Source: an uncultured bacterium (GTDB lineage: Bacteria > Patescibacteriota > Minisyncoccia > Phycocordibacterales > CAIZLB01). From it: a stretch of 64,000 nucleotides of DNA. Shown piece after piece: positions 23,269 through 57,511 of the stretch; the stretch's first letter is position 1; each line of letters starts with the position of its first letter. Location: assembly GCA_903864515.1 (NCBI GenBank), contig CAIPFZ010000018.1, positions 17,290 through 81,289 on the forward strand, read 5' to 3'. The notes under the pieces were generated by a model. The model did not search any database. It was given only the letters and a program-made list of their open reading frames with translations, and was not told the DNA's origin. Both the position numbers and the translations under genes were made by a program.

Positions 23269-25833
23269 ATGAACGAAAATCCTCCACAACCAACATCATC
23301 AGAAAGTCAAACAGGTGACAACATAAAACGCAGGGGAGTTTTAAGTGAGGTGTTAGAGAAGGTGAATGACAAGGATTCTAATAATTACGATTCTGTTTCA
23401 GCTTCAGGTGTTGGGGGTGAAGAAGAAGATTATATAAAGACTGAACACACCTATGATCAACATGGTGAGGTTGGTTTAAAAAAAGGAAGTATATCAAAAA
23501 CAGGAAATACAGACCCCGGTTTTGGATTGGTCCCTGGTGAATATTTATCAAAGCAAAATTCCTCTCTCAGTCTTGAAGGAAGTCATGATTTTTCTGACCC
23601 AAATGATTCTATGCAGGATGTTGACAGTTGGACTAGAAGCTCAAGGGCTTCTGATAGATATCAAGGACAGAAGGATGGTCTATCAAACTTGAGGCATGAA
23701 ATGAATCCAGAAGAAGATGAGCCTGAGGATATATATATGGATCCAAAAAATGTTTATGATCTAAAAGGAAGGAGAGTTGGAGGGAAGTTTAATACAGCTC
23801 CGCTTGATAATGAAAGTGAAGGTGAAGGATTGTTGTCAAAGGATCATGAGGGTGATGGCGTAGAACCAGGAAGTGTCAGTGTAAAGACTGAACAAAAAAT
23901 TGATGAAACACAAGAAACTTTGGCAGATACCCCACTTCCAGTTGAGGAAAAGGAGCCTGCAAAACCTAAAAAGACAAAATCACCAGAACCAGTAATTCCT
24001 CCAGAGGAACCCCCACTTCCACCAATGCCACCTTCAACACCAGAACCAAGGGTATTTCCAGAGACGCCAGAGTCTTCAGTAGCACCAGAACCACCAAGAC
24101 CACCAGAACCTCCTGTACCACCAATGCCGCCTTCATTTCCAGAGCGGGGTGATTTAACTCCACCACCACCATTCCCACAAGGAGGGTCTACCCCTCCACC
24201 TCTTCCAGAGGTTGCTCCAATGCCCGAAAGAACTCCTATGATTCCTCCATCTCTACCAAGAAATCCTGGAGCTACACCACCTCCACTTCCAAGACCTGAA
24301 GTGTCTATGCCTGAAAGAATTCCCATGAATCCTCCAGTTATTCCTGGTCCTGAAAATCCTATTCCAAATTCTAACGTACCAGAAAATGATAATTCTTTAC
24401 TAGGTAAAATCAACAGGGAAAACAGACTTACAATAGAGGCTGGTAATTCCATGGATCTAGGAAGTGAGATTGGTTGGCTCAGAAGTGCTTTTAATAAGTT
24501 GAGTATAAAAATGGGTTGGACTAAGGATATCGTTAATTATGTAAAATTAAATACAATAGACAAGGCCAGTATGGTCTTTGATACTTACGGAAATGACAGT
24601 CTGATTATAAGAAAAAAGAGAGAAATTGCTCGTCTTGATGCTGTAATACAAAGGGAAACTGATAACCCTACGGGTGAAAGAATGGCAAGAGAGAATGCTA
24701 ACAAAATAGAAGAGTCTATTAGAGAGGCTGAGGCTCGCGGGGATCAAAATATGGTAAGAGCTCTAATACTGGCAAAAAATGATGTTGTTGAAAACGGGGT
24801 AAACAGAAGAGGTCATCTCCAAGCAGAAAGAAACGCTTTGAATGAACAACTTGCAAGATATAATGAAAGAAAGATTTCAATAGTTGATAACTTTATTGCA
24901 AGTACTGAAATACAGACAGAAAGAATTAGAACAGCAGACAGATATCATGAAAATATTGCCAACTTAAGAACTATAAACACGGAGACAAATAGAATGTTAA
25001 GTGTCATAGCTGAAACAGATAGTCAAATAATAAGTTTGAAAAAGGCATTAGCTTCAACAAGAGATAGGGTAGATAAAGCTGAAATTAATGATGCTATCAG
25101 AGCATATGAATCACTCGCAAAACAAAGTAAGTTTAAGCTTAGTCAGTATGAATCCATTGGACATAGACTCGGTAGCTTTATAGAACTTACAGACAAGAGA
25201 ACAAAAAGATTCGATGATGTAAGAGACAGGTATGTAGGAGAAAGGAATATTTCACAAACTAATATTAATAATGGTGGTGTAACAAGAGCGTTCGTGCCAG
25301 CAAGTCCAGCGGGGCCAGCTAGACCTGCACCTACACCTGCGCCAGTCTCTCCTGCTACAAGAACGGGCCCAGCTGCACCTAGACCAACTCCTCCAGCGCC
25401 TGCGTCTCCAACACCAAGGTCTACCCTCGAGCCAACACCTACACCTTCAGCACCAGAATCAACAACCCCAGAACCTGAGCCGACACCCGATGTTGTAGAA
25501 AACCCAGAGTTGAAAAAAAGACGAACAGATAAAATCAAGGTTATAAATGATGCAGCAGAGAGGTTCCGTACGGCTTTTAGGAGTGAAAATAAGTCTGATG
25601 CAGCTGATCTTTCAACAATTCAAATGGCTAAAAATTTAGTTCCCGCATTGCGTGGATTCTTGAAGGACGGAGACTTTACTCAAGATGAAATTGAATTGTT
25701 TAAAAAAGCTGGAGAAAATATTGTTAATTTTATAGCTCAGACTGAAAAAGACGGCAATATTATTACAAACGACAATAGACAGTTTATGAAAATGGGAGGC
25801 AAGGTTTTTAAACAAATAAAAGAAATACAATAA
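23269..25833 (+). CDS. large proline-rich repeat / coiled-coil protein
   Basis: 854 aa. Acidic N-terminal region. Degenerate proline-rich repeats (TPPPLPxxxxMPERxPMxPP) also visible as ~84-bp DNA repeats around 24017-24340. Central coiled-coil-like region. Second PAPTP-rich stretch. Divergent from pilB. Confidence 0.5.
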   Translation: MNENPPQPTSSESQTGDNIKRRGVLSEVLEKVNDKDSNNYDSVSASGVGGEEEDYIKTEHTYDQHGEVGLKKGSISKTGNTDPGFGLVPGEYLSKQNSSLSLEGSHDFSDPNDSMQDVDSWTRSSRASDRYQGQKDGLSNLRHEMNPEEDEPEDIYMDPKNVYDLKGRRVGGKFNTAPLDNESEGEGLLSKDHEGDGVEPGSVSVKTEQKIDETQETLADTPLPVEEKEPAKPKKTKSPEPVIPPEEPPLPPMPPSTPEPRVFPETPESSVAPEPPRPPEPPVPPMPPSFPERGDLTPPPPFPQGGSTPPPLPEVAPMPERTPMIPPSLPRNPGATPPPLPRPEVSMPERIPMNPPVIPGPENPIPNSNVPENDNSLLGKINRENRLTIEAGNSMDLGSEIGWLRSAFNKLSIKMGWTKDIVNYVKLNTIDKASMVFDTYGNDSLIIRKKREIARLDAVIQRETDNPTGERMARENANKIEESIREAEARGDQNMVRALILAKNDVVENGVNRRGHLQAERNALNEQLARYNERKISIVDNFIASTEIQTERIRTADRYHENIANLRTINTETNRMLSVIAETDSQIISLKKALASTRDRVDKAEINDAIRAYESLAKQSKFKLSQYESIGHRLGSFIELTDKRTKRFDDVRDRYVGERNISQTNINNGGVTRAFVPASPAGPARPAPTPAPVSPATRTGPAAPRPTPPAPASPTPRSTLEPTPTPSAPESTTPEPEPTPDVVENPELKKRRTDKIKVINDAAERFRTAFRSENKSDAADLSTIQMAKNLVPALRGFLKDGDFTQDEIELFKKAGENIVNFIAQTEKDGNIITNDNRQFMKMGGKVFKQIKEIQ

Positions 25834-29453: not shown

Positions 29454-30182
29454 ATGCTTTATTTAATCTACGGAACAAATACAAACAAGGTACGAGCAAA
29501 ACAGAGGGAGCTTGTTGCTATTATGCAGAGTAAACAACCTAATGTTTCTTTGTATAGGGTTACTACAGAAAATTGGAAGGACTCATCTTTGGAAGAATTA
29601 TTGGGAAGTCAGGGTTTATTTTTAGCAAAGTATATTGTGACACTGGATAAGTTGTTGGAAGATAAGGAAATTGGATCGGAAATTATCGGTTTGCTGGAGG
29701 AAATGAAGGGAAGTGATCATGCTTGGATAATTTTAGAAGACAAGGTCTCCACCCCCAATCTTAAAAAGATAGAAAAGTTTGCATATAAGGTTTTTGATTT
29801 CAATGAATCTGTTGGTTCGCAAGCTGGAACTGAGAAAAAACGTCCACTTGCATTTGATTTTGCCGAGCAATTTGCTGGAAAAAATAAAGTTGGGGCGTGG
29901 GGTGAGTTTATTAAACTAAAGGACGCCGAGCTTGCAGGGGAGGAAATACACGGGGTTTTGTGGTGGCAAATGAAGTCAGTCTTTCTGGCAAAGTTCTGCA
30001 AAAATGCTGAAGAATCAGGTTTGACGCCATACTCATTTCAGAAGGCCTTGAGATTATCTAAGGGGTGGGAGCTTAAGGAATTAAACATTCTGTTGGATAA
30101 ATTGGTTCAAATATATCACGAGGCCCACAGAGGAAATGGAGATTTAATGGTGGAAATGGAAGGAATGTCACTGGGACTTTAA
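29454..30182 (+). CDS. DNA polymerase III delta subunit-like (short)
   Basis: N-terminus MLYLIYGTNTNKVRAKQRELVA resembles the HolA start. Directly downstream of polA. Short for HolA, so tentative. Confidence 0.4.
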   Translation: MLYLIYGTNTNKVRAKQRELVAIMQSKQPNVSLYRVTTENWKDSSLEELLGSQGLFLAKYIVTLDKLLEDKEIGSEIIGLLEEMKGSDHAWIILEDKVSTPNLKKIEKFAYKVFDFNESVGSQAGTEKKRPLAFDFAEQFAGKNKVGAWGEFIKLKDAELAGEEIHGVLWWQMKSVFLAKFCKNAEESGLTPYSFQKALRLSKGWELKELNILLDKLVQIYHEAHRGNGDLMVEMEGMSLGL

Positions 30183-32117: not shown

Positions 32118-33133
32118 TGATTCTCACAATAGTGAGTACTTCTGCCTCCAACTACAATTCTTTTGATTGTATATTTTAAGACTTCTTTTGTCTTGCCTGT
32201 TTCTGTCTTGCTTAACCTCTTGCATTCCGTTTTGCTGCACAACTCTCCCTTCTTTCTATAAACATTGTGCTGTTCTTGAAAAGATCCTTTTTCTCCATCT
32301 ATATTTCTATAATCAGACATTGAGTCTCCTCCAAAGTCTATTCCATTTGTTAAAACAGTTAAAATGGATTGAAAAAGTTTTTTAAGCGCATGTTGCGGAA
32401 TGTTTCTAACAATACTTTCTGGGTGAATATTTGAAAGCCAAAGTGCTTCATCGGAATAAATATTACCAATACCTGCAATTATTGTTTGATCCAATAGTAC
32501 TGTCTTAATTTTACCATTTGGTTTTTTATTAATTTGATCTTTAAATATTTCAAAATTAAATTCCTTGTTTAAAGGCTCTGGTCCAAGATGGGCTAAATCA
32601 GAGGAGTGAAATAATTTATCTGTTTTTATAACAGTAACTTTTGCAAACTTTCTAGTGTCAGATAAGACTAGTTTGCACCTCTCAGTGAATTCTGATTTTT
32701 TATGCAGTAAACTGAGGCTAAAAACAAGCCTTATGTGAGAATTGAATGGATCGTTCAAGGCTTGATTGTTAGTATTTGTTGGTTTCCATGGGTCATCTGA
32801 CTTAATGGATGTGGCTTTACTCCTTGTTTTTGAGGAAATGCTTGTATTTGTATATTCTCCAAACATTAAGTGACCAGTCATTTTCATGTGAATAAGAATA
32901 GTTTCCTTGTTGTCTAGATTTATTAAAATATTTTTTGCTCTACGTTCTGCATTTATAATTTTTGCTCCAATAATTCTGTTTTTGAATTCTGTGAAAAACT
33001 TCGGATCTTTAATATTCTCCTTCGATTTATAATATGGACTATTATAAATACTCCAGACATCAATTATCTTTGCGCCTTTTACTTTTTTATTTAAACCATT
33101 AACGGTTGTTTGTACTTCTGGTAATTCTGGCAT
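32102..33133 (-). CDS. mutM: formamidopyrimidine-DNA glycosylase (Fpg/Nei family)
   Basis: N-terminal MPELPEV, H2TH region, C-terminal zinc-finger cysteines (CSKTECK...HYCENHQ). Contains an insertion relative to typical Fpg. Convergently overlaps the trmH end by 16 nt. Confidence 0.75.
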   Translation of the reverse strand: MPELPEVQTTVNGLNKKVKGAKIIDVWSIYNSPYYKSKENIKDPKFFTEFKNRIIGAKIINAERRAKNILINLDNKETILIHMKMTGHLMFGEYTNTSISSKTRSKATSIKSDDPWKPTNTNNQALNDPFNSHIRLVFSLSLLHKKSEFTERCKLVLSDTRKFAKVTVIKTDKLFHSSDLAHLGPEPLNKEFNFEIFKDQINKKPNGKIKTVLLDQTIIAGIGNIYSDEALWLSNIHPESIVRNIPQHALKKLFQSILTVLTNGIDFGGDSMSDYRNIDGEKGSFQEQHNVYRKKGELCSKTECKRLSKTETGKTKEVLKYTIKRIVVGGRSTHYCENHQTKY

Positions 33134-33203
33134 TTTTGACGATTACTGTATCTTGAATAATAAAGAAATGTGGTGAGATGGTGGGGGGGGAGAAAAAAGG
33201 AGT

Positions 33204-33821
33204 TTAACTCAATACTTTAAGAGTTGCTTTAAGTATTGTACTTATGTCCTTCGTGTCTCTAATTTCCTTGGAAACATTCTCAAGCGCTTCTCTTGCTTCG
33301 CGCTGAGTATAACCTAATGCCTTAAGTGCTTCAAGTGCCTCCACTTCAATACCCCTATTTTGTTTGTTGTTTGATATTATTCCACCCTCAATTGAATCGT
33401 CATCCATATCACCCAATATCTTACCTTTTAATTCCATAACAATCTTTTCTGCGATTTTCTTACTTATCCCAGATACATTTGTTAAGTATGAAATATCTTG
33501 AGAGACAATAGCTTGTCTAAGATTTTGAGTATTAGCAAGTCCTAAAATATTCAAAGCAGATTTAGGCCCTATACCAGAAACACTAAGCAGGAGATTGAAA
33601 AAGTCTAATGAGTTTTTGTTTTTGAAGCCGTAGAGGTCTATTGCATCATCTTTGACAACGGTGTGAATCCAGATATCGACATGAGAAATACCTTCTGTTT
33701 CTGCAATAAAATCAGGGGTGGTGTAAACTTTATAACCCACACCGTTTTGATCGTTTCCTGTGTTTACGATCAAAAACTTCAAATCCCTATAAATAATGTC
33801 TCCTTTTAGGTATCCAATCAT
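33204..33821 (-). CDS. ruvA: Holliday junction DNA helicase RuvA
   Basis: OB-fold N-terminus (MIGYLKGDI), two HhH motifs (SVSGIGPKSALNIL, NVSGISKKIAEKIV), C-terminal RuvB-interaction domain. Confidence 0.85.
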   Translation of the reverse strand: MIGYLKGDIIYRDLKFLIVNTGNDQNGVGYKVYTTPDFIAETEGISHVDIWIHTVVKDDAIDLYGFKNKNSLDFFNLLLSVSGIGPKSALNILGLANTQNLRQAIVSQDISYLTNVSGISKKIAEKIVMELKGKILGDMDDDSIEGGIISNNKQNRGIEVEALEALKALGYTQREAREALENVSKEIRDTKDISTILKATLKVLS

Positions 33822-33923
33822 GTGCGCATTATAGCATATTTTATTATGGTGATTTGGTAAAAGTGATATATTTTATTGTGTAGTTGTCAAAAAACAACTT
33901 TTCTGCTATTGTTTGCAATACAT

Positions 33924-34184
33924 ATGCCAATAACCCAATCAGCAAAAAAAGCACTTAGAGGCTCAGAGAGAAAGAGAGTTGTTAATGTTCGTCGTAAGAA
34001 GAAGGTAGACATAGCTGTTAAGGCTGTTAAGACTCTTACTTCAACAGACAAAGCTACTGCTCAAACAGCTCTATCTAAGGCTTACAAGGAATTAGACAAG
34101 GCTGCAAAGAACGGTCTTATAAAGAAAGGCGCAGCAGACAGAAAGAAGTCAAGATTAAGTAAAATGGTTAAGAAGTTAAGTTAA
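33924..34184 (+). CDS. rpsT: 30S ribosomal protein S20
   Basis: MPITQSAKKALRGSERKRVVNVRRKKKVDIAVKAV is a classic S20. Start at 33924 (internal Met of track ORF 33876). Confidence 0.85.
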   Translation: MPITQSAKKALRGSERKRVVNVRRKKKVDIAVKAVKTLTSTDKATAQTALSKAYKELDKAAKNGLIKKGAADRKKSRLSKMVKKLS

Positions 34185-34205
34185 TTAAATAGATTAATTT
34201 ATCAA

Positions 34206-34236
34206 CAAAAAATACCTCATCTGAGGTATTTTTTGT
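34206..34236. terminator. bidirectional intrinsic terminator
   Basis: The sequence aaaaaatacctcatctgaggtattttttg is a 9-bp stem with A/T flanks, between rpsT (+) and the convergent membrane protein (-). Confidence 0.65.
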
Positions 34237-34244
34237 TGAGGGGA

Positions 34245-34946
34245 TTAAATAAGGGGGTCTTGCTTAAGATCCTTTGGATCTACATCATCAATATTCTTAT
34301 TATCTCCCAGTATTGTAGGGTGTTCTTTAACAATCGGCTCTGTTGTTAAGGGGACTGCGTTTCCATCCTTCTTTACCAATATGTGATGATGGGGGTTTGG
34401 TCCATTTTCTTCCTTCTGCTCCTCCTCCAATATTAGTTCCATAATAACGTCCTTAACTCTTTGAGGATTAGAAATCTGTTCAAAGAAGAATTTATTATCC
34501 TTTCCTGCAGTTTGTATCTCTATTACTCCATAATTGAAAAAAGTCGGTATTAAACCTTGAACTTTATAAGAAACGTCTTGTATTTTATCCAATTGTAATT
34601 CAGCAACTCTTCTGTTGAAAAAACCAGTCTGTAAACTGTCCACAACCCTCTCTGTTGTGACAATCCAGTTGTCTAGCGTATACATCGTAATTACATAAAA
34701 TAGCCAAAACCATAGGAATAGATAATAGGTAATCCAAAGAAAGGAGTAGATTGCTATTAAGTCATATTTAACAATTATAGAGCTAAAAGCAACTAGAAAA
34801 ACAAAGGGTAGGAATACAAAAAAGCCAATAAGTAGTATTTTTGCGGTAAGAGTAATCCAGTGTCTGTGTAAAACGAGAATAACATCTTCCTCCTCCTCTT
34901 TTCCCTCAAAAAACCAATTGTGTTTTTTTAATATTACTTTAGGCAT
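34245..34946 (-). CDS. membrane protein with bacterial PH (bPH_2/YdbT-like) domain
   Basis: Two N-terminal TM helices, then a domain ending ...VIEIQTAGKDNKFFFEQISNPQRVKDVI, typical of DUF304/bPH_2. Confidence 0.45.
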   Translation of the reverse strand: MPKVILKKHNWFFEGKEEEEDVILVLHRHWITLTAKILLIGFFVFLPFVFLVAFSSIIVKYDLIAIYSFLWITYYLFLWFWLFYVITMYTLDNWIVTTERVVDSLQTGFFNRRVAELQLDKIQDVSYKVQGLIPTFFNYGVIEIQTAGKDNKFFFEQISNPQRVKDVIMELILEEEQKEENGPNPHHHILVKKDGNAVPLTTEPIVKEHPTILGDNKNIDDVDPKDLKQDPLI

Positions 34947-34948
34947 GA

Positions 34949-35218
34949 TTATTGTGTTTTTTGTTTAAAATTATTTAAGATGACACTATTTTCCTTTATG
35001 AAAGTACTTTCACTTCCAAACATTTTTTTAAAGTCTATTTGAGTAAAGAGCATGAAGCTAAGCATACTGAGAATGATGGATCCGGCTAAAAATACAGCCA
35101 CAATTTTCTTTGGCCAAGATGTAATGCCATATTTAAGAAGGTGATACACTATAAAGAAAGCGCCCAACCAATACACAGCTAGGTATATTACTGGGATTGA
35201 AAGCATTATCTTGTTCAT
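34949..35218 (-). CDS. small membrane protein
   Basis: 89 aa with three hydrophobic segments. Immediately upstream of 34245..34946. Confidence 0.35.
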   Translation of the reverse strand: MNKIMLSIPVIYLAVYWLGAFFIVYHLLKYGITSWPKKIVAVFLAGSIILSMLSFMLFTQIDFKKMFGSESTFIKENSVILNNFKQKTQ

Positions 35219-35345
35219 GGAAGTATTTTATCACAGATAAAAATCTTTTGCCTTGAATGCCTATTGTTCTTGATTGGCTTATGTGCCAAATTCTTTAATG
35301 GGGTAGGCGTATGCTAATTGCAGTAATTAGACCTATCTTATAAAT

Positions 35346-35420
35346 TGGTGCTCCCGGTAGGAATCGAACCTACATTTTAACTTCCGCAAAGTCATGTCCT
35401 ATCCATTGAACGACGAGAGC
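35346..35420 (-). tRNA. tRNA-Arg with anticodon GCG (unusual)
   Basis: Reverse strand reads GCTCTCGTCGTTCAATGGATAGGACATGACTTTGCGGAAGTTAAAATGTAGGTTCGATTCCTACCGGGAGCACCA. Anticodon loop TTGCGGA gives GCG. D-arm and T-arm are near-identical to the tRNA-Arg(TCT) at 41012, supporting Arg identity. CCA encoded. Confidence 0.7.
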
Positions 35421-35447
35421 AATACCATAAAAAGTACCACAGATTTG

Positions 35448-35930
35448 CTAAAAACCCAAATTTTCTAGTATAAGTTGAGAAAGTGACTCCTCCATCTCCT
35501 TTTCAAGTAGATTATACAACAAAAAATCTCTAATCTCATGAGTCTCTATTCCATCAATTGGAATTATCAATAATGGGACAAGTGACTTTCTAGACTTAAT
35601 TAAAAGCTGAGACATTCTACCGTGTTCCTCATTATCTTGAACCCAAAATGACTCAAGAGTAGCGTAAGGGTAGAGTTTGTTACCAATTCTAACTCCCATT
35701 CTATTTAATTCAAATATAGTTAATTTAGGATGTCTAGACCCTACAATAGCAAGAGATATACCAATAACTATTAAAAGAATTCCAAATAGATAATTACCAA
35801 ATATAATAGAAAGAAAGGATGCTGTAACAATTAGTATTCCAAGAGACCAATACCAGTCTTTACTTTTCTCACGATGCTCATGCTCGTAAGTTTCCCAGGT
35901 TATTGATTTGACTTGTGATTCATCGTTCAT
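35448..35930 (-). CDS. hypothetical membrane protein
   Basis: Two TM helices near the N-terminus (LGILIVTASFLSIIFGNYLFGILLIVIGISLAIVG), then a soluble domain. Confidence 0.4.
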   Translation of the reverse strand: MNDESQVKSITWETYEHEHREKSKDWYWSLGILIVTASFLSIIFGNYLFGILLIVIGISLAIVGSRHPKLTIFELNRMGVRIGNKLYPYATLESFWVQDNEEHGRMSQLLIKSRKSLVPLLIIPIDGIETHEIRDFLLYNLLEKEMEESLSQLILENLGF

Positions 35931-35974
35931 AATTAAAATAATTATATCACTCGATTAATGATATTGCTATATCA

Positions 35975-36519
35975 TTAAAATTTATCTTGAAACGGAATAT
36001 CTATAAGCTTCTCGTACTTCCCACCAGAAATCTTTTTTTCATATACTCTTATAAAAGAAACTTTAAATTTAGGTAGTTTTAACAATTTGTCTTTCGCCCC
36101 TTCCTTTACTAATAATAGTTCTTGAGATGTCATCCCCCATGACGTTCCAGCTAGTGTGAGGTGAAAATGATAATTAGCACCCTCAAAATATTTTTTAGTT
36201 AATTCGTCACCAGGCTTAATTGTATTCATAAGTATTTTATGAAGGTCTGATAATTCCCTTGTGGGTGAAGGGGTTAGAAAGACAACGTTTTCTCCAAAAT
36301 TACCAACATCAACCATTGATATGTGAAAATTAGGATAACCCTGAACTGCTTTTTTAACAGAAGAAATCCAGCCCTTATCTTCAGATAATCCACCTTGAGC
36401 TTTAACTGTAATGTGAGGCTCTACCATTAGGGGACTTTATTGTTTGGAAAACTTTTTTGAAAGCTCACAATCTTTTCTTTAATATCATCTGGTAATGGAA
36501 TTCCAATAAAATACTGCAT
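35975..36519 (-). pseudogene. 2H phosphoesterase (LigT/ThpR-like) gene disrupted by a 1-nt frameshift
   Basis: The downstream part (35975..36427) carries both H-x-T/S-x motifs (HITVKAQG, HFHLTLAG). A 30-codon ORF at 36430..36519 encodes MQYFIGIPLPDDIKEKIVSFQKSFPNNKVP, the typical LigT N-terminus, in another frame. One extra C in the cccc run at about 36424-36431 would join them into one ~180-aa protein. Confidence 0.55.
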
Positions 36520-36715
36520 TTTAGTTTAATTAATTTGATGCTTTAATATTTAGATAAACAGGATAACCCTCACATATCAAGTCTTCAATGGGTACATATT
36601 AACATGTTTAAACTAAGTTGTCTGAGATGTGTGTTTTGCGATTATCTAGTTAATTTTAAGTATTCTTGTTAATATATTCACCAGAGACAGTAAACCATCA
36701 ACCTGAAAGGAAAAA

Positions 36716-37087
36716 ATGAAAACGTTTTTGTACAGACTGATATCAATTAGGAACGGAAACAAGGATGGGGTGTGGGTTTTGGGAGGAACCCTCTATTACC
36801 ATCATCAACTTCTCCTCGTGATAGAGGCTGATGATGCAGAACAAGCAGCAAAAGCTTTGGGTACTAAGATTGTTGGTTCGTTTGATCGTTCGCGTGCAAA
36901 TCTTCCAACGGTGTATTACACTGGTATTTCTCATGAAAACCAAGATCGTGCTTCCAATCACAAAGAAGGGTGTTTCTTTCTGTCACTTAAGGAATTGGAG
37001 CCGGGTGATGAATCTACGCATCCTGACTTAGTTGAGAAGACACACCTCAAGGTTACAGCACCAAGAGCAGTGCGGGTTGTCGCCTGA
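36716..37087 (+). other. GC-rich (~45%) segment open in several frames; unidentified structured RNA or foreign gene
   Basis: Three overlapping ORFs on both strands (36716-37087 +, 36743-36961 -, 36831-37031 +). G/C-ending codons are atypical for this genome. Followed by a strong hairpin and tRNA-Ser. I could not match it to tmRNA, RNase P RNA or SRP RNA by eye. Confidence 0.3.
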
Positions 37088-37115
37088 TTTACACAAACAA
37101 CCTGTATAAACAACA

Positions 37116-37142
37116 GCCCCGTCGCACTTCGTGCGACGGGGC
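37116..37142. terminator. strong GC-rich hairpin (12-bp stem, UUCG loop)
   Basis: The sequence gccccgtcgcacTTCGtgcgacggggc. On the minus strand it is followed by a U-rich tract, so it can terminate tRNA-Ser; it may also terminate the upstream GC-rich unit. Confidence 0.55.
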
Positions 37143-37164
37143 TAAGTCATGTTTATTGTATCGG

Positions 37165-37252
37165 CGGAGGAGGTGAGATTCGAACTCACGGTCCCCGTAA
37201 AGAGACTCTTGTTTTCAAGACAAGTGCATTAGACCACTCTGCCACTCCTCCG
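37165..37252 (-). tRNA. tRNA-Ser (anticodon TGA)
   Basis: Reverse strand reads GGAGGAGTGGCAGAGTGGTCTAATGCACTTGTCTTGAAAACAAGAGTCTCTTTACGGGGACCGTGAGTTCGAATCTCACCTCCTCCG. Long variable arm. Anticodon loop CTTGAAA. Confidence 0.85.
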
Positions 37253-37374
37253 TGTTTGTCATATTAGCAAAAATAAGGAAAAAAACAATAGACCACTTAA
37301 ACTATTAATTCTAAGTGATGTTTAATCAGTTTAATTAGCCATAAATCATTCTTTTTGCTAGACTAACTGTACTT

Positions 37375-38253
37375 ATGAATAAAGCTGTCTCTGAAATTAA
37401 AAAGAGAATAATAGGCCTAGATTTTGGCTCAAAAAGAATTGGAGTTGCTCTTTCTGATGAGCTTGGTTTGTTGGCTTTTCCTTTGTGTGTGGTGCCAGGT
37501 TTTGGACATGACACAGATAAAAGAGAGGAGAGAATGAGTCAAACAGAAAAGGAAGTATTATCGATATTAAAAGAGAAGGAGATTGATACTGTAATAATTG
37601 GACATTCCGTTGATCTGAAGGGTTTTGATAATACAATAATGACGGACGCTAGAATATTTGGTTCAAAACTTGAGAGCTACGGCTTTAAGATAGTTTATGA
37701 GCCAGAACTATTTTCAACTGTCCAAGCGACAAAAATTCAAGGAGAGAACAAAAACGCTGACGCATCTGCAGCTGCTATCATTTTACAAAGTTATTTAGAT
37801 AGAATAAAATTTAAAAATATGAATACACAATCACAAGATTTGGGAACAAGTTCCGATAATTTAAACAATACAGAATCGACAGAAGCTCCAAAGGGTGAAT
37901 CAAAGAGTGAAGTAAAAAGCACACCAGAATATATAACAATTGATGATTTTATTAAGGTAGAAATTAAGATTGGTGAAATTATGACCGCTGAGACAGTTGA
38001 AGGTTCTGATAAGTTATTAAAGCTCTCAGTGGACTTTGGTGAAGAAAAACCAAGGCAGGTTTTGTCTGGAATTGCTAAATATGTTGAAATAGAAGAGTTG
38101 ATAGGAAAAAAATTTCCCTTTGTCACAAATCTTGCACCTAGGAAGATGATGGGACAAGAAAGTCAGGCTATGATTTTGGCAGGAAGTCATGAGAATGATC
38201 TTGCTCTACTTAATCCAAGTAAGGATTTACCGAATGGAACGAAGTTAAAATAA
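37375..38253 (+). CDS. ruvX: RuvX/YqgF pre-16S rRNA nuclease fused to a C-terminal Trbp111/CsaA-type tRNA-binding domain
   Basis: N-terminal IIGLDFGSKRIGVALSDELG ... DTVIIGHSVDLKG ... ASAAAIILQSYLD gives the YqgF RNase H-like fold. The C-terminus DFIKVEIKIGEIMTAETVEGSDKLLKLSVDFGEEKPRQVLSGIAKYVEIEELIGKKFPFVTNLAPRKMMGQESQAMILA is a canonical OB-fold tRNA-binding (Myf) domain. Confidence 0.75.
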   Translation: MNKAVSEIKKRIIGLDFGSKRIGVALSDELGLLAFPLCVVPGFGHDTDKREERMSQTEKEVLSILKEKEIDTVIIGHSVDLKGFDNTIMTDARIFGSKLESYGFKIVYEPELFSTVQATKIQGENKNADASAAAIILQSYLDRIKFKNMNTQSQDLGTSSDNLNNTESTEAPKGESKSEVKSTPEYITIDDFIKVEIKIGEIMTAETVEGSDKLLKLSVDFGEEKPRQVLSGIAKYVEIEELIGKKFPFVTNLAPRKMMGQESQAMILAGSHENDLALLNPSKDLPNGTKLK

Positions 38254-38327
38254 AAGTAAATTAAAGTTATTTAATTTTACACAAATAATCATAACAAAAT
38301 CTTTTTGTTATGATAGAATAGTAGTAC

Positions 38328-39452
38328 ATGTCACATTTAGATTTTCTAAATAAATATTTTCCAACACCACATTATCTGGAGATGTCACACGCTGGTGTGG
38401 ATATTAGTTCATCGTCTGTTCACGTGTCTGAATTGATTAGAACATCTAAGGGGTTGAGACTGAAATATTGTGCTGAAGAAAATCTCGCTTCTCCAATTCT
38501 TCCAAATGAATCTTTAATTTCTAACAAAAATCTGATTGAAGTCATGAAGAATATTCAAAAGAAGTATAAGTTAAAGTTTGTTGAAGTCTCTATTCCGGAG
38601 GAAAAAGCGTATTTGTTTACAATAGAGGTGGTTGATGGAACAAAGGAAGAAATTAGAAATAGAATAGAGATGCACCTTGAAGAAAACGTTCCAATATCTA
38701 TAGATGACGCTGTGTTTGATTACCATAGAATAAAGAAAAATGAAAATACGGGTATGCAGTTTTTGGCCGTATCTGTTGTTCCTACGGTTGTTATAAATGA
38801 ATATATAGAACTATTTGAATCATGTGGAATGTTTCCAATATCCTTTTTGATTGAAAACCAGGCGCTATCAAGAGCTATTGTTAAGAGGGGAGACAGAGAA
38901 AATTATCTTATAATAAACGTTGGTCACAAGAGTACTGTACTCTCTATTGTAAATGATGAAACTGTGCAGTTTACATCTACAATAACCCTTGGATCTGAGG
39001 ATTTTACTAATGCAGTAATGCAGGCGACATCTTTTGATAAAGATCAATCTTCTGTCTTAAAGTATGAAAAAGGATTCTCAAGGGATAAAGAAAATGAAGT
39101 TATATCAAACGCTTTAATTGGTACAGCAAATATATTGGTCAGTGAAATTAGAAAGGTTCTTATGTACTGGAATGGTATGAATAGTTCCAAGATAATTGAA
39201 AACAGTATATCTGAATTATCTAGGCAAGTACCCCAATCTTCTGTTGGTGTAAAAAAAGTATTGATTGCAGGAAAGGAGGCTGGTATTTCTGGATTCAGAG
39301 ATTTCTTGGCAATTTCACTTAAAACGCCGGTTGAAATTGCAAATGTGTGGACAAACATACTGTCCTTTGAAGATAGTATTCCAGATATATCCATGAAGGA
39401 ATCATTAAGTTACGGCGTTTCCTTTGGGCTAGCTTTATTAAAAGATCAATAA
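38328..39452 (+). CDS. pilM: type IV pilus assembly protein PilM-like (actin-like ATPase fold)
   Basis: ~370 aa cytoplasmic protein, followed in operon order by single-TM PilN-like and PilO-like genes. Assignment by gene order, size and composition. Confidence 0.55.
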   Translation: MSHLDFLNKYFPTPHYLEMSHAGVDISSSSVHVSELIRTSKGLRLKYCAEENLASPILPNESLISNKNLIEVMKNIQKKYKLKFVEVSIPEEKAYLFTIEVVDGTKEEIRNRIEMHLEENVPISIDDAVFDYHRIKKNENTGMQFLAVSVVPTVVINEYIELFESCGMFPISFLIENQALSRAIVKRGDRENYLIINVGHKSTVLSIVNDETVQFTSTITLGSEDFTNAVMQATSFDKDQSSVLKYEKGFSRDKENEVISNALIGTANILVSEIRKVLMYWNGMNSSKIIENSISELSRQVPQSSVGVKKVLIAGKEAGISGFRDFLAISLKTPVEIANVWTNILSFEDSIPDISMKESLSYGVSFGLALLKDQ

Positions 39453-39453
39453 A

Positions 39454-40005
39454 ATGTTACATCTATTAACTGAATCACAAAAGAATAAGGTGACAAAGGA
39501 ATACAAGATGAGACTTGTTATTGTTGTATCTTGGATGATCATCTTTATATCCCTTACTGGTATGGCATTAACTCTGCCGATTTATTTAATATCAGTAAGT
39601 AAGATTAATCATATTAAAAACGATAATCAAAGTAAGGAAAACTCAACTAAGGCTCTTCGTGATCAGAATTTTCAAGATAAGATTAAGCAGGTTAATTCTA
39701 GCTTGGGTGCACTTAAGATGTTTGTAGGTGTACCGTCTCCCAGGAATACTTATCTAAAGATAGTCGACAGCTTGCCTGAAGGTGTATATATAGACAGGTA
39801 TACTTACGGATTAATAGACGATAGTTCCGCATCAATTAGTATAAGTGGCGTGGCACCAGATAGAGAGAGACTGCTTGAGCTTCAAAATAAATTAAAATCA
39901 AATAGTGAATTTAGTGGTATTAATATTCCAATTACCGGTTTTACCAAGAAAAAAGATTTAAGTTTCTCGTTAAATTTCAATTTAATTAGAGTTATTAAAA
40001 AATAA
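39454..40005 (+). CDS. pilN: PilN-like bitopic membrane protein
   Basis: Short cytoplasmic N-terminus, one TM (LVIVVSWMIIFISLTGMALTLPIYLI), periplasmic-type domain. Start codon overlaps the pilM stop. Confidence 0.5.
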   Translation: MLHLLTESQKNKVTKEYKMRLVIVVSWMIIFISLTGMALTLPIYLISVSKINHIKNDNQSKENSTKALRDQNFQDKIKQVNSSLGALKMFVGVPSPRNTYLKIVDSLPEGVYIDRYTYGLIDDSSASISISGVAPDRERLLELQNKLKSNSEFSGINIPITGFTKKKDLSFSLNFNLIRVIKK

Positions 40006-55561: not shown

Positions 55562-57511
55562 GTGTGGTTTAATTTAATAATCAAAAAATCAAATAATTAT
55601 ATGAGTAGATTAACAATAGAAGGTAAGGTGGGGATTGCTGTAGTAGCGGTTCTCACAATAGCCTTCTCTATTTTTTTAACAAACAACGCTCAAGCACAAG
55701 CAAGTAGGACGGGTAGACCAGATGTTGTAATACAAACAACAGTAGCAACATCAACTGATTTCTCTAAATCATCTGTATACATAACAGGAGCCTCAGGAAG
55801 AGACTACATCACTCCGTTTGCTGGATTTGGCGTCTCCATGCTTCCTGACTCCTGCTACGCATATAACAACATAAGTGCTGATATACAGAAGATAACATAC
55901 GTATTAAGTACACAGATAAAGGAAATGGTTGATCTGTATAGCTCTAACTCATGTAATACACAAACCACACTCTCTCCAACATGCACCAGCTACCTAGACT
56001 CAATAAATAACCTAACTCTGACCTATGCAACATACCAAGTAGAGGGTCTAAAGCAAGCAAGTGAGAAGACAAGACTATGTAATACTGACAACACAAGAAA
56101 GACTGGAGTATCTCCAAGAACATACTATGGAATAGATGTTGTTGCGCTAACATATGCATCAGTAAGAGACGCATATGTAAACAAGAGTTATAGAAGTCAT
56201 ACTACACTTCTAAATAATGTGAACAGTAACCTGACAAGCAAGATGAATGTTGCCATAAGGTCTGATAAGTTCACTGATAAAGTTACATCATCTTCAACAC
56301 TACGTACTCTTGCATATAACACATTCAAGAATCCATCACAGACACCTGAACCAAGATCAAGAGTACTCCCAGCTACACCAAGTACATCACTGAGTGTTCC
56401 AAATGCATTCCTATTCTTTGGACAAACAGATAATGTAACAAACAGGCAAATTGCTGCTATTCCATTTAATTCACTACAAGAATATGTAAATGCATACAAC
56501 GCCAACAAGACAAGATTTGCTGATATATACAACCCAATCAACAGAACACTAATTGACCAAGGTGAGAATGTACTCATGAATATTAACAGGAAGATTGAAC
56601 TAAGACTTCCACCAAGAGAGGTACTACCAGAACCTGTTGCTGTTGCAACAACATCAACTGACCAAGTACTGCCTGCTACACAGAAGGCAAGCGTGATTAA
56701 CTCTATTGGTAACTGGTTTGGTGGTATATGGAGCGCTATAGCTGACTTCTTTGGTTATATGTTCTGGGGGGAGAAGGCGGAGGCGGCACCTAGAGCTGGA
56801 AAGGATTCTCGTCTCCTTGTTGGTCCGAGTGGAAGTGGAGCAAGCGGAAGTGGGGAGAGTTTTGATGAGAAGATGTATAAACAGCTATGTCCCGCATTGC
56901 CTAATCCGGTGCCGAAGCAGAAGTTGGTGGCGGTGCCTAGTGATAATAAAGAAGAGGAGGAAGTATTCTTTAAAAATCTTCTTGTGAAGAGTCCCGGTAT
57001 CAAGCAGGCAACAGAATATGTTACAGGTGAACACTTTGGAACACCGACCCTTGGCGATGCAGAGATTGAACATATAATAAATAAAAGTTATTTCGATCAC
57101 AACACATCTTCATTCAGTGGTCGTATTACCGGAAGTGAAACTCCACCTAAGAAGCCAGAGGACGTAAGGAAAGAAATTGAAGATAGGACTAAGGAGCCTT
57201 ACACTTACGGTAGTGGTCCGATGGTAGTAGACCTATCAAAACCTACTAATCCATATAATTGTTTAAGAGATTTTGATACGCATGAAACTGTTGACTGGAG
57301 TCAATACTTTCACCCTATGTCGTCTTCATTCTATGATTCACTTAAAATTACAGTGAGGGCTGTTGTTGCAGGAACCGAGCAAATAGCTACCGAGACATTT
57401 AGCACAAAGAAAACTAGGGAAGCTGAAGTTCTTAATAATTTTGAAAGATATGAAACTTTGGCTACTAATTTACAGGTTGAGTTCGTTAATCGTGCTAACA
57501 AGAGGAAGTAG
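55562..57511 (+). CDS. secreted S/T-rich hypothetical protein
   Basis: The TM/signal segment GIAVVAVLTIAFSIFLTNNAQA follows an internal Met (MSRL). S/T/N-rich, cysteine-containing N-terminal region, acidic C-terminal half. The track start coordinate appears to coincide with a GTG codon. Confidence 0.45.
   Translation: MWFNLIIKKSNNYMSRLTIEGKVGIAVVAVLTIAFSIFLTNNAQAQASRTGRPDVVIQTTVATSTDFSKSSVYITGASGRDYITPFAGFGVSMLPDSCYAYNNISADIQKITYVLSTQIKEMVDLYSSNSCNTQTTLSPTCTSYLDSINNLTLTYATYQVEGLKQASEKTRLCNTDNTRKTGVSPRTYYGIDVVALTYASVRDAYVNKSYRSHTTLLNNVNSNLTSKMNVAIRSDKFTDKVTSSSTLRTLAYNTFKNPSQTPEPRSRVLPATPSTSLSVPNAFLFFGQTDNVTNRQIAAIPFNSLQEYVNAYNANKTRFADIYNPINRTLIDQGENVLMNINRKIELRLPPREVLPEPVAVATTSTDQVLPATQKASVINSIGNWFGGIWSAIADFFGYMFWGEKAEAAPRAGKDSRLLVGPSGSGASGSGESFDEKMYKQLCPALPNPVPKQKLVAVPSDNKEEEEVFFKNLLVKSPGIKQATEYVTGEHFGTPTLGDAEIEHIINKSYFDHNTSSFSGRITGSETPPKKPEDVRKEIEDRTKEPYTYGSGPMVVDLSKPTNPYNCLRDFDTHETVDWSQYFHPMSSSFYDSLKITVRAVVAGTEQIATETFSTKKTREAEVLNNFERYETLATNLQVEFVNRANKRK

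Follow-up and report, generated by a model that had tools for sequence, protein, structure and literature searches.

Morons, the extra genes described from phages, are defined by a promoter and a terminator of their own and by a deviant GC content (PMC3594210, Cumby et al. 2012). In cellular genomes, the 3' flanks of tRNA genes are general insertion hotspots, at which genomic islands and islets of atypical composition vary from lineage to lineage (PMC4891358). Here we analyse a locus that recalls both systems. It lies in a stretch of 64,000 nucleotides from a Patescibacteria (CPR) genome, referred to below as the window; all coordinates without further specification are those of the window, and loci on other contigs are numbered with the prefix L.

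A block of raised GC content at 36716-37145 is, very probably, a self-contained single-gene cassette that this genome has acquired horizontally. In the mechanism we propose, an extended -10 promoter followed by a short leader with a Shine-Dalgarno sequence would drive expression of a 123-aa protein, and a 13-bp GC-rich hairpin would end its mRNA; read in the opposite direction, the same hairpin would terminate the transcript of a convergent tRNA-Ser(UGA) gene. Together with a LigT-like gene, the cassette would occupy a slot at the 3' side of this tRNA gene, the contents of which differ per lineage, and the slot would behave like the morons and islets accumulating at tRNA genes.

The likeness to phage morons is considerable: the cassette also consists of a single gene with a predicted promoter-like element, a terminator and deviant GC, it is extra DNA relative to related genomes and its family occurs in different contexts. 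Unlike a moron, it is situated outside any recognisable prophage; phage genes are absent from the slot segment and its vicinity, and a tblastn search of phage and plasmid collections gave no match. With tRNA-gene islands the slot shares the position at the 3' side of a tRNA, the variability between lineages and the atypical composition, whereas it is only about 1.2 kb long and has neither an integrase nor a repeat of the tRNA 3' end. None of this should surprise a specialist in genome evolution; the locus is of interest as what appears to be a whole cassette, from promoter to terminator, that moves from one unrelated context to another.

A protein-coding gene in the GC-rich block

The GC content of the block is 45.3%, compared with 34.9% across the 64-kb window (z = 2.9), a level reached by only 1.7% of 430-bp windows. 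The preliminary description of this DNA had estimated about 45% against about 33%, and the computed profile is indeed not flat. A peak of 300-bp-window GC at 36900-37300 is partly due to the tRNA-Ser gene and the hairpin themselves; the ORF alone (36716-37087) has a GC content of 0.446 versus 0.349 for the window. The longest stop-free stretches in the six frames of the block measure 123, 68, 36, 40, 79 and 61 codons, so four of the six frames are open for at least 60 codons, which is true of only 2% of 430-bp windows. The presence of several open frames had been noticed correctly, but their reading as a hallmark of RNA does not hold, since multi-frame openness is what locally higher GC yields in an AT-rich genome. 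Only one frame, with a start codon and homologues, is a full ORF.

This ORF is a protein-coding gene on the plus strand (36716-37087), with an ATG at 36716 and a TGA stop codon at 37085-37087. Its product is a soluble protein of 123 amino acids (13.7 kDa, pI 7.0), for which 17 homologues of 104-125 aa were found, 50-66% identical over the full length (E 1e-17 to 1e-63). Since every homologue begins with MKTFLY, the ATG at 36716 is the start; for the same reason the JGI gene call P0001, 105 aa long and beginning at V18, was rejected as too short. FDRS and LKELExxD are among the motifs that are invariant in the family alignment.

Codon alignments of the window gene with four homologous genes exhibit the periodicity of coding sequence. 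Differences are distributed over the three codon positions as, for example, 27/32/73 or 33/28/69, the third position changing about twice as often as positions 1 and 2. Synonymous sites are saturated (pS 0.67-0.83), pN amounts to 0.22-0.29 and dN/dS to 0-0.2. AlphaFold2, run with a small alignment, returned a model with six strands and short helices (pLDDT 85.9, pTM 0.77).

Structured non-coding RNA, whether of a new type or a divergent form of tmRNA, RNase P RNA or SRP RNA, had been considered for the same block, its ORFs being mere by-products of GC content. Raised GC, the four frames open for at least 60 codons and a stable hairpin at the 3' end would all be compatible with it. However, at the Rfam gathering threshold tRNAs alone pass in the whole window, and in E-value mode (E <= 10) the best non-tRNA candidates in 36450-37300 reach 12-23 bits against gathering scores of 35-88, that is, chance level. 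The 372 nt of 36716-37087 fold no better than dinucleotide shuffles (MFE z -0.59 on the plus and -0.25 on the minus strand). By the standard that the preliminary description itself had set, RNA of either kind is refuted by the confident, full-length protein homologues and the codon-periodic substitution, which conserves the protein despite saturation of the synonymous sites. The confident AlphaFold2 model also speaks against RNA, which is almost certainly the wrong explanation. To tmRNA (RF00023), RNase P RNA and bacterial small SRP RNA the block is alike only in its GC richness and its tRNA neighbour; it differs in having no covariance-model match and in evolving as a protein.

The block is thus an ordinary protein-coding gene and no new RNA class, which removes a false lead and illustrates that a small protein gene of foreign origin can give an "RNA-like" composition signal when the genome is AT-rich. 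A small foreign ORF had also been among the options of the preliminary description, and it is the one that the data favour: the codon usage is atypical and relatives hold other genes in the same slot.

Codon usage and origin of the gene

As a host reference, we took 50 long ORFs of the window, which have a GC content of 0.351 +/- 0.026 and a GC3 of 0.27 +/- 0.037. The corresponding GC1/GC2/GC3 values of the 123-aa gene are 0.57/0.38/0.39, confirming that its codon endings are atypical of the neighbouring genes. Back-translation of the protein with host codon usage yields a GC of 0.395 +/- 0.014 and a GC3 of 0.272 +/- 0.038, and the observed GC (about 0.446) and GC3 (0.39) are reached in a fraction of 0.0005 and 0.002 of the simulations, respectively. 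Since host codons leave the GC below that observed, the GC excess is due in roughly equal parts to codon usage foreign to the 35%-GC host and to amino-acid composition (GC1 0.57). The homologues agree in GC with the genomes they belong to (37-45%), and the codon usage of the 123-aa gene resembles that of the 39-47% GC genomes carrying homologues.

A native, vertically inherited gene, GC-rich through its amino-acid composition only and lost in relatives, would account for the high GC1 (0.57) and for a host-codon back-translation that already stands at 0.395 against the genome mean of 0.349. It would not account for GC and GC3 values above the host-codon expectation. Moreover, all three related lineages examined are without the gene and have other genes at the slot, and besides an identical copy nothing closer than 66% is present among 5.8 billion clusters. 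We consider vertical descent quite unlikely and prefer horizontal acquisition. As the nearest homologue is 66% identical, no donor was identified.

Elsewhere in the window, sequence richer in GC than the block is present only at 23269-25833 and 55601-57511 on the plus strand, where 430-bp windows reach 0.51. Both regions sit in large ORFs (854 and 636 aa) that have no Pfam domain and an ordinary GC3 of 0.24 and 0.31; they probably encode large, compositionally biased CPR proteins. Among the other long ORFs of the window, just one has a GC3 as high as 0.39: a 242-aa ORF at 29454-30182 (plus strand), also lacking a Pfam match, which may be another foreign gene.

Promoter-like element and leader

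Upstream of the gene we found a putative promoter at 36645-36675 (plus strand). It comprises an extended -10 element TGtTAATAT, with TG at 36667-36668 and TAATAT at 36670-36675, and a conserved motif TCTAG(T/C)TA at 36645-36652. Both the pattern TGnTAnnAT and the motif ahead of it can be aligned across homologous loci whose upstream genes are otherwise unrelated. A simple sigma-70 consensus scan did not call this element, its -35 region being poor, and its activity as a promoter is inferred. The 5' untranslated leader would then extend from 36676 to 36715, with the Shine-Dalgarno sequence AGGA at 36708-36711, 4 nt ahead of the ATG. The leader CAGAnAnnAAACCATCAACCnGAAAGGA is conserved in the window, L001, L010 and L016.

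The extended -10 element and the leader are kept in the closer loci (L001, L010, L016 and partly L008) and not in all nine loci aligned. Genes located upstream of the homologues vary and include TPM phosphatase/LemA, AHSA1, RNase R-like, RarA and RelB/YafQ genes, among others. A conserved upstream partner gene was considered and rejected, as no relationship exists between the small upstream ORFs of L005 and those of L008. Judged from these alignments, promoter-like element, leader, ORF and hairpin appear to be conserved together in the closer loci, across unrelated contexts.

A hairpin between convergent genes

Downstream of the gene lies a GC-rich hairpin (37114-37144), supported by a terminator scan of the minus strand, by folding energy and by covariation. 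Its stem, AGCCCCGTCGCA(C) UUC (G)UGCGACGGGGCU at 37115-37143, is perfect over 12-13 bp. The preliminary description had reported a 12-bp stem closed by a UUCG loop; the stem stands, while the canonical tetraloop does not, the loop in the window having lost one base of the cUUCGg present in homologous copies. Folding gave minimum free energies of -30.7 kcal/mol for the 75-nt intergenic piece (z -6.6 versus shuffles) and of -35.4 kcal/mol (z -6.1).

In L001, L005, L010/L017 and L016, too, the gene is followed by a homologous hairpin, with a cUUCGg loop except in L016, which has GAAU. In the alignment of five sequences, 91% of cells are paired and five of the 14 pairs have changed on both sides, that is, by compensatory changes; this register is far better than any slid register. 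The stem therefore co-varies. At the remaining loci, other terminator-like hairpins with T runs are located 3' of the gene.

Past the hairpin, the minus strand reads UUGUUUAU, in agreement with a terminator of tRNA-Ser, and the terminator scan gave its match on this strand, with the stem followed by TTGTTTAT. The plus strand continues after the stem with AAGTCATGTTTATTGT, in which the U tract is interrupted (AAGUCAUGUUUAUUGU); homologous copies carry GATTTTATTTTAT at this place. Because of this interruption, termination of the mRNA may be inefficient. Judging from its sequence and position, the hairpin probably terminates transcription in both directions, that of the 123-aa mRNA and that of the convergent tRNA-Ser. 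It shares with bidirectional intrinsic terminators a GC-rich perfect stem between convergent units, here U-rich on the minus side and kept by compensatory changes in homologous loci; it differs from them in the interrupted plus-strand U tract and the loop that is one base short.

A variable slot at the 3' side of tRNA-Ser(UGA)

The convergent tRNA-Ser(UGA) gene, identified by ARAGORN and Rfam (63.7 bits), occupies 37163-37251 on the minus strand, 76 bp past the stop codon of the 123-aa gene, and the block does abut a tRNA-Ser gene as the preliminary description had stated. We compared this region with contigs of the closest relatives, whose proteins are 73-77% identical to those of the window. 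In blastn searches, 33000-35974 and 37159-39500 align to L018, L020 and L022 at 74-86% nucleotide identity, and nothing aligns in between. The segment at 35975-37158 thus has no counterpart in close relatives, and its right edge lies 4 bp ahead of the tRNA-Ser 3' end, where synteny resumes at 37159.

In the window, the slot holds the LigT-like gene, the 123-aa gene and the hairpin. The same place is taken by a short-chain dehydrogenase gene (adh_short) in L018-L021 and by a 221-aa ORF, DUF4349 and NlpC/P60 in L022 and L023; all six loci have other genes between the 160-aa gene and tRNA-Ser, and neither the 123-aa gene nor the LigT-like gene is among them. Since relatives align on both sides and differ between them, the slot at the 3' side of tRNA-Ser(UGA) is hypervariable within the lineage. 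The presence of three cargo sets across related lineages bears out the earlier suggestion of an integration hotspot at tRNA-Ser, documented here base by base in an uncultivated Patescibacteria lineage. The slot is flanked by host genes (bPH_2, tRNA-Arg, RuvX fusion, PilM). Its downstream neighbour encodes a fusion of RuvX with a tRNA-binding domain that is typical of Patescibacteria, with homologues from Paceibacterota, Taylorbacteria and Patescibacteria.

How did the segment arrive? Apart from the LigT-like and the 123-aa genes, 35975-37158 carries no gene, neither integrase nor recombinase. No second copy of the tRNA-Ser 3' 27-mer (<=3 mismatches) is present in the 64 kb, nor is there a relevant direct repeat in 34000-39500. 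With no integrase, att-like repeat, phage gene or phage/plasmid match, the term moron applies by analogy only, and the comparison made above places the cassette beside morons as an analogue rather than among them as a member. As to the route of acquisition, the slot segment would at best be an island remnant, or may have been acquired by homologous recombination. The LigT-like gene has a host-like GC content of 0.34, hence the segment did not arrive recently as a single uniform piece.

The LigT-like gene (35975-36519, minus strand) encodes a 2H phosphoesterase (Pfam 2_5_RNA_ligase2, 9.6e-14) and is split. A 30-aa ORF at 36427-36519, which resembles the missing N-terminal strand of the fold, and a 150-aa ORF at 35975-36427 overlap in TAATG. 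The split represents either a frameshifted pseudogene or a sequencing error. L004 is identical to the window across this stretch and hence has the same split.

Positions 1-1694 of L004 correspond to 35539-37230 of the window and, at their beginning, to 3534-3933 of L018: the first 300 nt are 100% identical to L018, and what follows is 100% identical to the window. The switch occurs inside a 31-nt stretch common to L004, L018 and the window (about 35837-35867 in the latter). L004 is either a product of very recent recombinational transfer, into another lineage, of the segment with the LigT-like and 123-aa genes or a chimeric metagenome contig. We therefore did not accept it as proof of recent transfer, chimeric assembly explaining the pattern equally well.

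Recurrent association with tRNA-Ser

Next to homologous genes elsewhere, tRNA-Ser genes occur repeatedly. In four contexts, no more than 300 bp separate the gene from a convergent tRNA-Ser downstream of it, namely in the window (UGA), L003 (UGA), L010/L017 (GCU) and L016, where the neighbour is a truncated tRNA-Ser-like end at the contig edge. In three more, tRNA-Ser lies within 1.3-5.2 kb: L001 (GGA), L005 (CGA), with a Rep and serine-recombinase element between the homologue and the tRNA, and L008/L011 (GCU). There is no tRNA within 4 kb of the gene in L007. Six of the eight tRNAs in the non-window loci are tRNA-Ser, which would be very unlikely by chance if about 10% of tRNA genes are tRNA-Ser, a share that we assume. 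The anticodon of the partner varies by locus and does not track the protein tree.

The simplest reading of this linkage is that the gene was repeatedly inserted, or retained, at the 3' flanks of tRNA genes. The same counts, tRNA-Ser at no more than 300 bp in four contexts and at 1.3-5.2 kb in three more, and six of eight non-window tRNAs, could also be expected if the protein were functionally tied to tRNA-Ser, as a binding or modifying factor or as a regulator sharing the terminator, so that the adjacency persists. Such a tie is very improbable: the protein has no known RNA-binding or enzymatic domain, the anticodon differs between loci off the protein tree, L007 lacks a tRNA within 4 kb, and the general attraction of insertions to tRNA 3' flanks explains the linkage more simply (PMC4891358). 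Insertion or retention remains our preferred reading. It is a long shot that this orphan family is specifically and repeatedly placed at tRNA-Ser 3' flanks of varied anticodons, through an integrase-less insertion route or because the protein, maybe with an unsolved fold, acts on tRNA-Ser or seryl-tRNA.

Several peculiarities of these loci were recorded along the way. Between the terminator of the gene and the intact tRNA-Ser, L003 (6385-6525) and L016 (2636-2775, minus strand) contain an element of about 130 nt, absent from the window, which starts like the 3' end of a tRNA-Ser (GCGGAaGAGG.../GCGGAAACGGAGGGATTCGAA), has an acceptor-like 5' half at its other end and forms a stable fold (z -5.9 and -2.7). 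It matches no Rfam family; an att remnant, a pseudogene derived from a tRNA and a small RNA resembling a tRNA are all conceivable.

In L008 (3961-4048) and L011 (5961-6048, minus strand), both from Saccharibacteria, there is a tRNA of the Ser type with a long variable arm, scoring 56 bits to the tRNA model. Its loop TTACTAA gives the anticodon ACU, with A34, and a normal tRNA-Ser(GCU) is present in the same locus. An A34 anticodon ACU is unusual for bacteria.

In L005, 2486-7562 comprises a REP_ORF2-G2P rolling-circle initiator, three small ORFs and an ORF for a large serine recombinase that runs into the tRNA. This block has the appearance of a small replicon integrated beside the 3' end of tRNA-Ser; a search for att repeats in L005 found none.

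A rare protein family

The family was found in Patescibacteria and has very few members: a profile searched against 1.84 billion representatives gave 14 proteins at E < 1e-10 (about 14 clusters). In the GTDB set, one species genome, a Saccharibacteria MAG, has a clear copy, and a second, weak match of 28% identity belongs to a Polyangiaceae MAG.

Searches of the 18 family members against Pfam, NCBIfam and PADLOC gave no significant or recurrent match, and PHROGs returned only phrog_14649, of unknown function there, at E about 0.005 for five of the 18. A profile search of PDB by sequence detected no relative (best E-value 0.14), and Foldseek found nothing similar to the model in PDB or BFVD. 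A 230-aa phage tail-module protein in L013 and L014 shares KxFLYR and FDRSRAGLPT with the family; it was rejected, as these loci had been picked by that very pattern and hhalign assigned the pair a probability of 4%.

According to the model, the 123-aa protein is likely to be a soluble alpha/beta protein. Homologues are located in the neighbourhood of HEPN/MNT, RelB/YafQ, PemK, AbiEii and PIN genes and of Rep with serine recombinase. Because the family is very rare, patchy and single-gene, and resides in variable regions rich in toxin-antitoxin and mobile elements, we tentatively suggest, as a guess that could well be wrong, that, instead of being a housekeeping enzyme, the protein may be a binding protein with a dispensable accessory role or one in conflict. 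As an orphan with a confident model, no structural match and an unexplained linkage to tRNA-Ser, it is a modest candidate for follow-up.

Two homologues carry additional sequence. One has a C-terminal extension of 130 aa without known domains. In the other, at 3-890 of L024, the homologue continues after KAPGTSSAG in frame into a complete guanylate kinase domain, the only fusion seen in the family.
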